64,000 bases of DNA, taken from the NCBI GenBank assembly GCA_026026165.1, contig JAPEUD010000016.1, positions 62,001-126,000 of the forward strand, written 5' to 3'. The position numbers were made by a program, and so were the translations under genes. This DNA comes from Sarea resinae. Taxonomy: Eukaryota. Under the pieces are notes generated by a model. That model saw only the letters and a list, made by a program, of their open reading frames with translations. It had not been told where the DNA came from and did not search any database. Each line of letters begins with the position of its first letter. Within the stretch, counting starts at the first letter, position 1. Below, piece by piece: positions 1 through 25,189 of the stretch.

Positions 1-2789
1 AGGGATGATGATTGAGCTAGAAGTTGTTGTCGGAGTTGGTTGTTGGAGTTGTTGCTGCTGCTGATGGATGGATTGGTCGTTCGTGTCATGCGGCGAGCGC
101 ATCTGTTGTTGCTGATGGGGCGAGGACTTGCTCTCCACATGGCTCTCAAGAAGGCTGGCTGTGAAATCAGAGTCTCCGAACATTGGAGGCGCCTGATGGG
201 TAGCAGTCGGGGCGTTGGTAGCAGCAGTGGCGGCCGCGTGGCAGGCATCTATATTTTGAAGATCTAATCGAGGGGACTCGACCTTCTTGATAGTGGACGC
301 CCGGCGGGCATGAGGCTTGGTGGTAGTGGTAGTCGTCTGTTGCTGTTGCTGTTGCTGTTGTTGTTGCTGTTGCATAGCAATAGCGGCCATAGCCCTAGAG
401 TGTGGCTGCAGTAACTGGCACATCTGCGACTCGAGATTGTCTAGCCGATCCTTCAGAACCTCCGCCGTGCTCCAGTGCATGACATATTGGTGGAAATTCA
501 GTCTGAGCAAGTCAAATTTGGTCTCGATAAGTCGCTTGGACGAATCCTCCGGTCCAAAAAGCTTGAATACCAGTTCTGCTGCACCGGCGAGCCAGATGGT
601 GCTAGCGAGGAAAGGGTTGACGTAGCGGACGTGCTCGTCCGAGGTATTGCTAACAATGGTAAAAATCCGATCCGCTGCCTCGGTATACCTCCGCAATGCC
701 TTGTCGCCATGCTCGCTGCGAGGTCCAAAGCCCGGGACTTGGCTTTGCTTATCGGTAGGCATCATGCGCGCTCGCGATTGTGCCTCTTCATCCCAGTGGC
801 GGAAGCAGCCTTGGGCACATCTCCCAACGAGCGAGGGCTCTTGAAGCACGTCACCAAAGACTTCACGATGATAGATCATGATGTAGGTAAGCTGGATCAT
901 AAGATAGATGCTGTGTTTTGCGCTATCTCGGCGGCGGACTATGGCGGTGCTCGCTGGATCGGGACCGGAGAAGCTTAGGTGTTCGTTTTGATAGGCAAGA
1001 GAGCGGGGAAGAGCGGCGGCGAAGCAGCGAAGAGAGTTGGTAAGCAGTTCGAGATTCGAGGATGAATCTCCACATCGCCAACTGTAAGCAGCTGCACCTA
1101 TAATAGTTTAGTGATAGCTGATAATTCGGATCGGAACGCAGCGTACCACTTGCGGTTGACAGGAGCTGGGCATCCCTCATGAAGGAATTGACCACGATAA
1201 ACCACGCTTTGGAACTCTGGTTCCCACTTCGCTGCAGCGACTTCCATCGCTTGATAGGATCGAGCTCCAGAAAGCAACTCGGCTGAGGCTTCTGAGCAAA
1301 CCAGCAATCATCATCAACAGGAAGCAGAGTCTCATTCTGCGACCAATCGATTGCTGTTGGGGCTCGTCGAATTGTGCTCGCAAAGACGTCAAACTCCCAG
1401 ATAGCCCACCAAGCGCGTCGGCGCTCCTCGTCCATGCACCACTGGGATACATCCCCCTGCACTGATACTTGCGGCAAAGTCCCTGGCGGCGGTGGTGACT
1501 GGGGCGCTGGCGTCCGCTTGCAAGGGTTCGTGTTTCTATCTGAGTCGATTGCGTGAAGCTGAAGTTCATATGCTATCCGCACGCAGAGCCCGAGCGATCG
1601 CCAAGCCTTTCCTCGGACGCCTTTGATGAGTTGCTGGAAAGTGGTCAAGATCAACGCCTGCAACAAGGTCAAAGGAGGGGTCTCGTCCTCGCACTCATTG
1701 AGCGCCTCATCGACGAAATGTAGAGCCAGATTCAGGTACCAGTCAGAAGAGGACGTCGAGGTGTTGGCATTGCCGGTCTGGTCTTCAATATCTGGCAAGA
1801 AGCGTGCGGAGAAGGAAAACATGGCAGCCAAAAGAGCATGGAGTTGGGTTGGAGATGCAATGGTGCGAAGTTTCTTCTCGAATTCTGGCCGTGAGAAGAG
1901 GGAGAAAGAGGTCATGTTATCGAAGTAGGCGTCAATTCTATACTTGTCAGCAAGGATCATTCTCCAGAGTCACTTTCACTTACAGTCGCTGGACCATATC
2001 AGGAGATGTTCTTAGTGCATATCGGAATTGCAGTGTAAGGTCGTCAGATGAGAGGACACCCCCTTGCACGGACTTGTCAGTCTGCAGGGGTGCACGCAGA
2101 CCCAGAGCCTCCTCAATCTGAGAGCAGCCATCTGAAGAGTCATGCGAGGGATGGACGATCCAAGATAGAGAAGGAGCATTAAGCGTCCGTCCCTCTTGTT
2201 TGGTCGTAGCCGCAGAAGGAGAAGTCTCGGGAGATAGAGGACCATAAGTCTCTCCTACGTTGGCTTCTCCGCTTACGCTGGAGTTTTTCCGTTGTGCGGA
2301 TTGCTTCGCGTCCGCATTGGACGTCTTTCGACGCCTTGCTTGGCCTCCGTTCCGGCCACCCTGACCGCGGTCATCCCTGGCACGCTTTTGGACCCAACTC
2401 GAGACACCTGAAATACTGGAATTAAGAAATGCGATAATACGTCAAACAGTGATCCTGACTTACCAATTTTTGGTCCAGGTTTCATCGGACCAGCTGGATA
2501 CCGGCATGGTTGTCCTTGATTTATACAGATAGTACAGCAAGGCAGCCCGCGATCGCTATTAGATGTTAAAAAGGTACTCCGACAACAGGACTGATGTCGC
2601 ATACCATTTGACTTTCCGTCTAGAAAAATCAGTCAGTCTTTAGAACGTCGTAATTCTTGTATCCAGTCAACATATGGCATACCTTCTGCAATTTTGGCAG
2701 GCGAGATTAGCAAGTTGGCCTTCGACAGGCTCGGTCTCTGGTGGCGGTGTCATGGCGCCCTCCACTTCGGTATTCATACTGACATTCAT
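1..2789 (-). CDS. Zn(II)2Cys6 fungal transcription factor with fungal-specific TF (middle homology) domain; 3' end truncated by window edge
   Basis: Spliced exons 2789-2683, 2619-2605, 2555-2464, 2407-1984, 1937-1147, 1097-<1 (all GT-AG) give CQNCRRRKVKCDRGLPCCTICINQGQPC. The MHR domain shows in IDAYFDN...LQALILTTF...WRSLGLCVRIAYELQLH...EERRRAWWAIWEFD. The last exon is open to base 1 and contains a Q12 tract (337-372). ATG at 2789 or 2777. Confidence 0.92.
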
Positions 2790-24176: not shown

Positions 24177-25189
24177 ATGACTTACGAACTCAACGGGTTC
24201 GTCCCCCCCTCTTCTGCCACTCCCCAAGTCTAACCTCCCGCCCAGCGTAGCAGTCGTGACGGGCGCTGGTGGCGCCATCGGCACCGCCGTCGTGCTCCAG
24301 CTCGTGCAAGAAGGCTGCACGCGCATCGCCGGCATCGACCTCAGCGCGCCCGCGCTCGAGGCCGTGGCCGCGCTCGTCGCGGCTGAAAACCCGGCCGTCG
24401 AGTTCCTGGCCTGCGTGGGCGACCAGTCCAACGAGGCCGCCGTCAAGGCCGTCTTCGAGAAGATCGTGGCCACCTTTGGCCGCATCGACTATGCCGTCAA
24501 CAACGCCGCCCTTCCCGGCCCCATGACCAAGACCGACGAGGGCGACGTCGCGCGCCTCGAGGCCGTCATGGCCGTCAATCTCAAGGGCACCTGGCTGATC
24601 GAGCGCGAGGAGCTGCGCATCATGGCGGCGCAGGAGCCGTTGGCGCCGCCGAAACCGTGCGTCTTTGTCGTCTCCTTGACGAAAAATCCCCGAGCTGACT
24701 TTTTTCCTGCTAGAACGTGGCGCCCCCGGACGCGCGGCTCGATCGTCAACGTGTCGTCGGTGCTGGGCCTGCTGGCCATGCCGCGGAACGGCATGTACAC
24801 GATCACGAAGCACGGCATGATCGGCATGAGCAAGACGGACGCCATCGACTACGCCAAGCAAGGCATCCGCGTCAACACCATCTGCCCGGGGTATGTCATC
24901 CTCTGATCTCCCGTGATTTTTTTTTTTTTCTTTTTTTTTTCTCACTGTCCTCCACCCTTTCTCGTTCTTGTTCTCCGACCTCTAACGCGCATCCACCAGA
25001 TTCGTCGAGACGTCGCTCCTCAGCCCCGCCATCCGCGCCGTGCTGCAGCCCAACATCGACAAGACGCCGATGGGGCGACTGGCCCTGCCGCAGGAAATCG
25101 CGGATAGCGTGGCGTTCCTGGCTTCGGATCGGTCGAGCTATATGACGGGTAGCACGCTGACGGTCGATGGCGGGTACACTGCGCATTAA
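24177..25189 (+). CDS. Classical short-chain dehydrogenase/reductase (SDR2)
   Basis: Exons 24177-24196, 24246-24656, 24714-24890, 25000-25189. Motifs [36 protein letters not shown]. Confidence 0.92.

Follow-up and report, generated by a model that had tools for sequence, protein, structure and literature searches.

A stretch of 64,000 nucleotides of the Sarea resinae genome (GenBank assembly GCA_026026165.1, contig JAPEUD010000016.1, positions 62,001 to 126,000, forward strand; hereafter the window) carries at its left end a cluster of eight oxidative genes, among them a flavoprotein resembling the 3-ketosteroid delta-1-dehydrogenases (KstD). A Pfam scan returned, in order, a Fungal_trans transcription factor (TF), FAA_hydrolase, p450, adh_short, NADPH-cytochrome P450 reductase (CPR), FAD_binding_2, ABM and a second adh_short, the adh_short genes being short-chain dehydrogenases/reductases (SDR1 and SDR2; Table 1). 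The spliced models of the cluster genes have GT-AG introns and zero internal stops, and seven of the eight genes are intact. The exception is the TF, whose model has a C6 motif, five GT-AG introns and a frame open over 840 residues; because no stop codon precedes base 1, the left end of the cluster lies outside the window. Judging by locus tags, the contig probably holds no more than about 26 genes to the left of the cluster, tag 001617 being on another contig. The right boundary is formed by UTP21, followed by VIP1, an inositol monophosphatase and other ordinary genes. No backbone synthase (polyketide synthase (PKS), non-ribosomal peptide synthetase (NRPS) or terpene cyclase) was found among the large open reading frames (ORFs) of the window, and a scan of 14 large ORFs on the right side of the cluster was negative for PKS, NRPS and terpene synthase domains. 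An earlier note on this DNA had described eight contiguous oxidative genes ending at UTP21, with no PKS, NRPS or terpene synthase in the window; the Pfam scan, the spliced models and the right-side scan agree. Its gene order also held; the truncation of the TF is a correction to it, as is the short first exon of the flavoprotein, which it had not mentioned.

Table 1. Features of the cluster (positions in the window) and two genes of the homologous locus L005 (positions in that locus).
Feature	Position	Strand	Description
TF (Zn2Cys6 + Fungal_trans)	3..2789	-	6 exons, >840 aa, 3' end beyond window; PF04082 E 1e-21
FAH-superfamily (HpaG/FAHD-type) hydrolase or decarboxylase	5630..6814	-	287 aa, 4 introns; PF01557
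Cytochrome P450	7900..9670	-	526 aa, 3 introns; PF00067
SDR1, classical SDR	11091..11955	-	270 aa, YxxxK; PF00106/PF13561
CPR	14339..16470	-	692 aa, 1 intron; Flavodoxin_1 + FAD_binding_1 + NAD_binding_1
Flavoprotein exon 1	18917..19018	+	Arg-rich, acid-free presequence-like peptide; intron predicted from sequence
Flavoprotein exon 2, KstD-like FAD protein, putative ketone alpha,beta-desaturase	19068..20723	+	PF00890 E 3e-86; 585 aa both exons
ABM-like dimeric alpha/beta-barrel protein	22203..23096	-	217 aa, 2 introns; PF03992 weak, E 1.5e-4, below cut-off
SDR2, classical SDR	24177..25189	+	265 aa, 3 introns, open model, YxxxK; PF00106
L005 Baeyer-Villiger monooxygenase	11879-13549	-	inside homologous cluster
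L005 SnoaL_3 protein	14264-14827	+	inside homologous cluster

The flavoprotein aligned with PDB entry 7p18 at E 9e-85. Four residues are essential in KstD1, namely Y119, Y318, Y487 and G491 (PMC8950399). Their equivalents in the flavoprotein are Tyr, Tyr, Tyr and Gly, kept in 249, 260, 255 and 257 of the 262 rows of the family. The FAD-binding consensus GSGX5-6AX2AX3GLX5EX5GGXXAXSG is also present, as matched by eye. The predicted structure (predicted local distance difference test score 86.5) has a two-domain fold with a Foldseek template modelling (TM) score of 0.87 to 7p18. Among solved structures the 3-ketosteroid delta-1-dehydrogenases came first (TM 0.81-0.87, 31-34% identity), with cyclohexanone dehydrogenase next. 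By residues, FAD consensus and fold the protein belongs to the mechanistic class of KstD-type ketone alpha,beta-desaturases, as the earlier note had proposed, and desaturase chemistry is highly probable. The best NCBIfam scores were those of PRK06134 (577 bits, cut-off 747) and PRK12843 (559 bits, cut-off 758), the curated KstD models PRK12844 and PRK07843 giving 428 of 789 and 394 of 788 bits. Because all NCBIfam scores fall below the cut-offs, the flavoprotein is judged not to be an orthologue of KstD, ChcC1 or ChcC2.

Conservation of the cluster was assessed in named genomes and in metagenome loci. In 12 of 32 named NCBI fungal representatives the accession or tag number of the flavoprotein differs by 1-13 from that of a P450 of the same family, as counted among the best 120 of 214 P450 representatives with 30 clusters opened. 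The distance is 1 in Exophiala viscosa and Rasamsonia emersonii, 2 in E. bonariae, E. xenobiotica, E. aquamarina, Cladophialophora psammophila, Aspergillus oleicola, A. pseudoustus and A. versicolor, and larger in Thozetella (5), Capronia epimyces (6) and Fusarium solani (13). About 0.5 linked cases in 32 would be expected by chance, assuming some 10,000 genes, up to six family P450s and a span of 13 genes on either side, the linked taxa not being independent of one another. The linkage spans several fungal orders, and the linked P450s share 55-74% identity with that of the window. In Myxozyma, a yeast, the accessions of the P450 and ABM genes differ by two, and the flavoprotein lies on a different contig. 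A Fonsecaea P450 beside AYO21_09800 was not counted as linkage, being of another family (21% identity). Also in Fonsecaea (P0080/P0310, P0312/P0313), a second flavoprotein paralogue adjoins a P450 of another family (about 21%), possibly an independent pairing.

The fungal group comprised seven of 64 metagenome loci, and in four of the seven (L004 to L007) the flavoprotein lies beside the same TF and SDR1. L004 carries the TF, two P450s, SDR1, SDR2, ABM and a sugar porter; L005 the TF, a P450, SDR1, another SDR, a Baeyer-Villiger monooxygenase, a SnoaL protein and two porters; L006 the TF, a P450, SDR1, another SDR, FAH, CPR, a porter, a phenol-hydroxylase-like monooxygenase and an HpaD-like VOC protein; and L007 (7.8 kb) the TF, SDR1, another SDR and ABM. 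The loci L004 to L006 are 21.6 kb each, 10 kb on either side of the flavoprotein, and are cut at the edges; no PKS, NRPS or cyclase ORF was present in these stretches or in the 7.8 kb of L007. All porters of L004 to L006 are of the sugar-porter type. The L006 monooxygenase combines FAD_binding_3 and Rng_hyd_C, and its VOC protein is extradiol-type (E 7e-7); a monooxygenase, VOC and FAH trio is linked to stilbene clusters. The Baeyer-Villiger monooxygenase and SnoaL_3 protein of L005 suggest a lactone exit. The flavoprotein match of L004 (9986-11654) is broken by a frameshift near 10936-10941, which may be an assembly error or a pseudogene.

The TF homologues of the four loci are 34-39% identical to that of the window over about 500-650 aligned residues. 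SDR1 reaches 71% in L004, 55% in L005, 68% in L007 and 49% across the 86 residues available in L006, and at most 39% in the ten best bacterial loci. SDR2 has its best match in L004 (41-59%), with generic SDR similarity only in L005 to L007; apart from SDR1, the SDRs of these three loci (30-35%) were not counted as SDR2 orthologues. FAH has a homologue in L006 (49-72%), as has the CPR at the edge of that locus (44%), and ABM in L004 and L007. The conserved core consists of TF, P450, SDR1 and flavoprotein in shuffled order, the presence of FAH, CPR, ABM and SDR2 varying between loci. For each of the eight genes there is at least one further fungus with a homologue no more than 10 kb from the flavoprotein. 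Absence of conserved linkage in other genomes had been named in the earlier note as an outcome contrary to its interpretation; linkage was found in both the named fungi and the metagenome loci, and we expect with strong confidence that the cluster is a functional unit.

Further matches bear on the individual genes. The P450 model corresponds to P0129, and the spliced P450 and ABM products match the Sarea resinae database proteins M1819_001646 and M1819_001650; the three tags between these fit SDR1, the CPR and the flavoprotein. Two further P450s of the family, P0191 and P0220, are labelled with the same species. A PDB search with the window P450 returned distant animal and plant P450s only, and its relatives bear the automatic labels patI/yanC-like or 'P450 oxidoreductase'. 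In both SDRs an Asp ends beta-2, a feature of NAD-preferring SDRs. The CPR is probably a copy dedicated to the cluster. The ABM-like protein matched PDB entry 3gz7 (E 5e-7) and an ascomycete ABM cluster of the Atlas (TM 0.83); a search of all representatives gave 50 matches, all unnamed, which assign it no function. Contigs of DNA run X1, which may derive from the source DNA itself and does not count as independent, match just short parts of the CPR (14609-14643) and the P450 (8667-8833), which fits paralogues elsewhere.

In a quick tree of 53 rows chosen from 262 plus four outgroups, rooted on two annotated actinobacterial kstD genes, the 22 fungal flavoproteins form one clade (support 100 in the Shimodaira-Hasegawa-like approximate likelihood ratio test), nested among proteobacterial rows and separate from the annotated kstD genes. 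A topology grouping the 27 other ingroup rows together was rejected by the approximately unbiased test (p-AU 1e-4), the tested group having been chosen in view of an earlier tree and five P-rows and three metagenome rows being presumed bacterial. A bacterial origin of the flavoprotein is likely from this nesting. Its first 30 residues hold six Arg/Lys and no Asp/Glu; a simple presequence rule is satisfied by 18 of the 32 named fungal homologues, and the presumed bacterial homologues (n = 20) have just 8-16 residues ahead of the FAD motif. The protein is probably imported into mitochondria, to judge by this N-terminus. Both the likely bacterial origin and the targeting were overlooked in the earlier interpretation.

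The neighbourhoods of the bacterial relatives were compared as well. Among 33 near loci of at least 10 kb, a CYP199-like P450 occurred in 17, an OYE-type flavoenzyme in 12, a VOC protein in 12, a phenol-hydroxylase-like monooxygenase in 10 and an HpaG-type FAH in six, against 0, 0, one, 0 and one respectively in 64 more distant loci; the neighbour probes were drawn from the near group, which biases the comparison toward it. TRAP/ABC neighbours also occur beside the bacterial relatives of the flavoprotein. A recurring proteobacterial operon (L012, L068, L069, L072-L077, L081, L083 and related loci) combines the KstD-like flavoprotein with a CYP199-like P450, two to three SDRs, an OYE-type enzyme, a VOC protein and DUF3237, sometimes adding a phenol-type monooxygenase and a fumarylacetoacetase. 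In an Atlas cluster of 93 bacterial proteins the flavoprotein is fused to a NIPSNAP barrel, which shares a clan with ABM; this hints that the barrel belongs with the desaturase.

One wood-decay metatranscriptome run yielded transcript contigs of all seven enzyme genes. Of the 19 predicted introns, 14 fall in the compared stretch, and 12 of these are skipped in the contigs (FAH 4/4, P450 3/3, SDR1 1/1, CPR 1/1, ABM 2/2, SDR2 1/3), the five TF introns lying outside it. For the flavoprotein the contig covers the 3' part and the predicted intron was skipped in 0/1. The contigs are evidence of transcription in one sample, which is distinct from co-regulation. Contig depth of this run was also seen in a repeat-rich bin at 23328-23991, between the divergent ABM and SDR2 genes, and may represent misplaced repeats.

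From this gene content and its conserved context we infer a catabolic module, under regulation, that acts on a plant compound of alicyclic (hydroaromatic or terpenoid) nature and probably leads toward a phenol, with a probability of about 0.6. That the module is catabolic can be held with good confidence, an alicyclic substrate is moderately probable, and full aromatisation is somewhat doubtful. As a first guess, the substrate in this resin-dwelling host would be a resin monoterpenoid or its oxidation product; Sarea fruits exclusively on conifer resin (PMC7451776). The P450, with electrons from the cluster CPR, would hydroxylate a ring carbon, and SDR1 and SDR2 would oxidise the epimeric alcohols to the ring ketone with NAD+. 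The flavoprotein would then remove alpha,beta hydrogens once or twice by a Tyr-base and hydride-to-FAD mechanism; this step would probably take place in mitochondria, where a quinone can reoxidise its FAD. The resulting dienone would tautomerise to the phenol, the ABM barrel possibly helping. The phenol would next undergo ortho-hydroxylation, then ring cleavage by an extradiol dioxygenase, and the FAH-family enzyme would carry out the hydrolysis. The oxygenases of this step are clustered in L006 and presumably encoded elsewhere in the Sarea resinae genome; L005 would use a Baeyer-Villiger exit instead.

A number of observations weigh against this proposal. No cluster protein reaches the cut-off of any Chc or KstD model (ChcC2 429 of 900 and ChcC1 290 of 1000 bits for the flavoprotein), so the likeness to the bacterial cyclohexanecarboxylate (chc) pathway drawn in the earlier note stands as an analogy only. 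The chc route has two desaturases and the cluster one. Ring-hydroxylating and ring-cleaving genes are found in one of the four homologous loci (L006), and its phenol monooxygenase and dioxygenase have no match in the window. The earlier note had likewise reported no ring-cleavage dioxygenase there; of its 'self-contained, regulated catabolic or detoxification module' the catabolic context stands, and 'self-contained' is probably too strong with these ring genes missing. Sugar porters suggest a polar substrate, and a mitochondrial step between endoplasmic reticulum (ER) and cytosolic steps would suit a neutral one. Fourteen of the 32 named flavoproteins seem unlinked to the family P450s listed and six were unjudged, three of the seven metagenome loci (L008, L014, L030) have the flavoprotein with none of the other cluster genes, and the linked P450s are spread over several subclades, so that substrates may vary by locus. 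Many non-resin fungi are among the hosts of homologous clusters. The RNA data are contigs from a single study with no control condition.

SYGGRG sites (the CreA consensus) numbered 51 in the eight cluster promoters against 33.5 expected (1/200 shuffles), the motif being a common GC box spotted post hoc in these very promoters; ten other promoters of the window, with approximate starts, had 20 against 28.4. Observed and expected counts were 42/17.8 in L004, 33/22.7 in L005 and 32/20.8 in L006, and enrichment was absent in L007 (8 against 6.1, 51/200 shuffles). The excess would fit glucose repression of a catabolic unit. No convincing Zn2Cys6 (TF-specific) site was found in the promoter search; CGG-N20-CGG and CGG-N13-CGG, which ranked highest when 792 patterns were scored on a mixed background, are not claimed.

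Four other explanations were considered. The cluster could modify or detoxify a polycyclic terpenoid or steroid, such as a resin acid or sterol-derived ketone, by hydroxylation, alcohol oxidation and delta-1-type desaturation, with no simple phenol formed. The steroid delta-1-dehydrogenases are indeed its nearest solved structures, the host fruits solely on resin, fungal resin-acid breakdown is thought to be P450-initiated (PMC13348985) and a known fungal KstD is HelE of helvolic acid (PMC5696383). This explanation is nevertheless unlikely, as the flavoprotein clade is apart from the annotated kstD genes, and the sugar porters, together with CYP199-like P450s and TRAP/ABC neighbours in bacteria, suggest small polar substrates. 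Placed behind it, and unlikely too, is oxidation of the side chain of an aromatic compound, that is PatH/PatI-like benzylic hydroxylation, oxidation to an aryl ketone, desaturation of the side chain or of a chromanone or flavanone ring, and then phenol catabolism. The patI/yanC enzymes act on cresol-type substrates and CYP199 oxidises para-substituted benzoates, so that both the patI/yanC-like labels of the P450 relatives and the CYP199-like bacterial partners speak for it, and the phenol hydroxylase, VOC protein and FAH of L006 suit it equally. The labels rest on distant similarity only, however, and the characterised relatives with the same catalytic set, among those compared, act on ring ketones.

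Very unlikely is a third explanation, in which the genes are the tailoring half of a biosynthetic cluster whose backbone gene sits beyond the left end of the window, or decorate a primary metabolite. The TF is cut at base 1 with the left flank outside the window, L004 to L006 are cut at their edges, and the helvolic acid cluster joins the same P450, SDR and KstD classes; but the examined DNA of L004 to L007 holds no PKS, NRPS or cyclase ORF, the accessory genes encode porters for uptake, FAH, a Baeyer-Villiger monooxygenase, a ring hydroxylase and a protein resembling dioxygenases, and the shuffled order leaves no constant flank. The least credible explanation, that the core (TF, P450, SDR1, flavoprotein) alone is a unit or that the genes are a loose island of unrelated oxidative functions, can draw on the presence of FAH and of CPR in one of four homologous loci each, on the single clear counterpart of SDR2 and on the split arrangement in Myxozyma, but accords poorly with the homologues of all eight genes near the flavoprotein in other fungi and with transcription of all seven enzyme genes in one sample.

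The proposal of a catabolic route for an alicyclic compound would bear on two questions. Yeast aromatisation of cyclohexyl acids is reported at the level of metabolites, with the step left open (PMC7778628, PMC11204954), and the breakdown of resin by fungi is described as less clearly worked out than the dit system of bacteria (PMC13348985). With a conserved core of four genes whose catalytic chemistry is known, both become testable in yeast or Aspergillus. If the proposal is true, the flavoproteins would be an uncharacterised clade of ketone desaturases with value as biocatalysts, and an example of a bacterial enzyme retargeted to mitochondria within a fungal gene cluster. A wider scenario is offered tentatively: an ascomycete ancestor may have acquired a proteobacterial KstD-like desaturase, fitted it with a presequence for mitochondria and joined it to a P450, SDR and regulator of its own, thereby recreating the P450-SDR-desaturase logic for which the bacterial relatives employ an unrelated P450, and in resin-dwelling fungi resin terpenoids may be turned into alkylphenols and cleaved as a carbon source, which would provide the genetic basis of fungal oxidative ring aromatisation.

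Two features of the window lie beyond the cluster: an 803-codon ORF (41161-43569, plus strand) with no Pfam match at 1e-5, and a laccase-like multicopper oxidase gene (56.3-58.3 kb, minus strand), 31 kb from the cluster and with no link to it seen.

The cluster is apparently undescribed so far. No description was found in the open literature, searched also by six locus tags/accessions, subscription papers and bioRxiv supplements being outside that search; this agrees with the earlier note, which did not recognise the combination from a characterised fungal cluster. Clusters of Ophiostoma piceae (PMC3680317) were considered as the same system and gave no match. The helvolic acid cluster of Aspergillus fumigatus combines the KstD HelE, the SDR HelC and HelB P450s (PMC5696383). 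It is biosynthetic, with acyltransferases and a cyclase backbone; in the examined DNA of the present cluster no cyclase was seen, and its neighbours are catabolic. No A. fumigatus protein was named among the best 120 flavoprotein matches, the likeness to HelE being one of description. Fungal phenolic-catabolism clusters of the phenol 2-monooxygenase, aromatic ring dioxygenase and stilbene dioxygenase classes are described by Gluck-Thaler and Slot (preprint, 10.1101/184242), and the monooxygenase, VOC and FAH genes of L006 are of this general kind. The excerpted text of that preprint mentions no KstD-like gene; its supplementary cluster models may overlap with the present one.

The bacterial chc pathway, with a P450, the SDRs ChcB1/B2 and the desaturases ChcC1/C2 (PMC10710301), matches the cluster in its enzyme classes and in their logical sequence. 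On the ChcB2 model, partial exons of the SDRs gave 119 and 105 bits (cut-off 350), below their scores on several generic SDR models. The cluster differs in its eukaryotic ER-type P450 and CPR, Zn2Cys6 regulator and presequence-like extension, and would work like the chc aromatisation route by analogy, failing membership of it. Compared with KstD, the cluster flavoprotein is without steroid-catabolic neighbours. The cyclohexanone dehydrogenase of Alicycliphilus denitrificans (8am3) shares superfamily and fold (TM 0.73-0.74) at 22% identity, and desaturates monocyclic ketones (PMC10966990). Closest are the uncharacterised proteobacterial FAD-dependent oxidoreductases of the PRK06134/PRK12843 type, among which the fungal clade nests. 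The nearest of these are also located beside a P450, SDRs, a VOC protein and a phenol-type monooxygenase, but the P450 that accompanies them is CYP199-like, with no relation to the fungal one: the nearest bacterial relatives follow the same logic with different parts.

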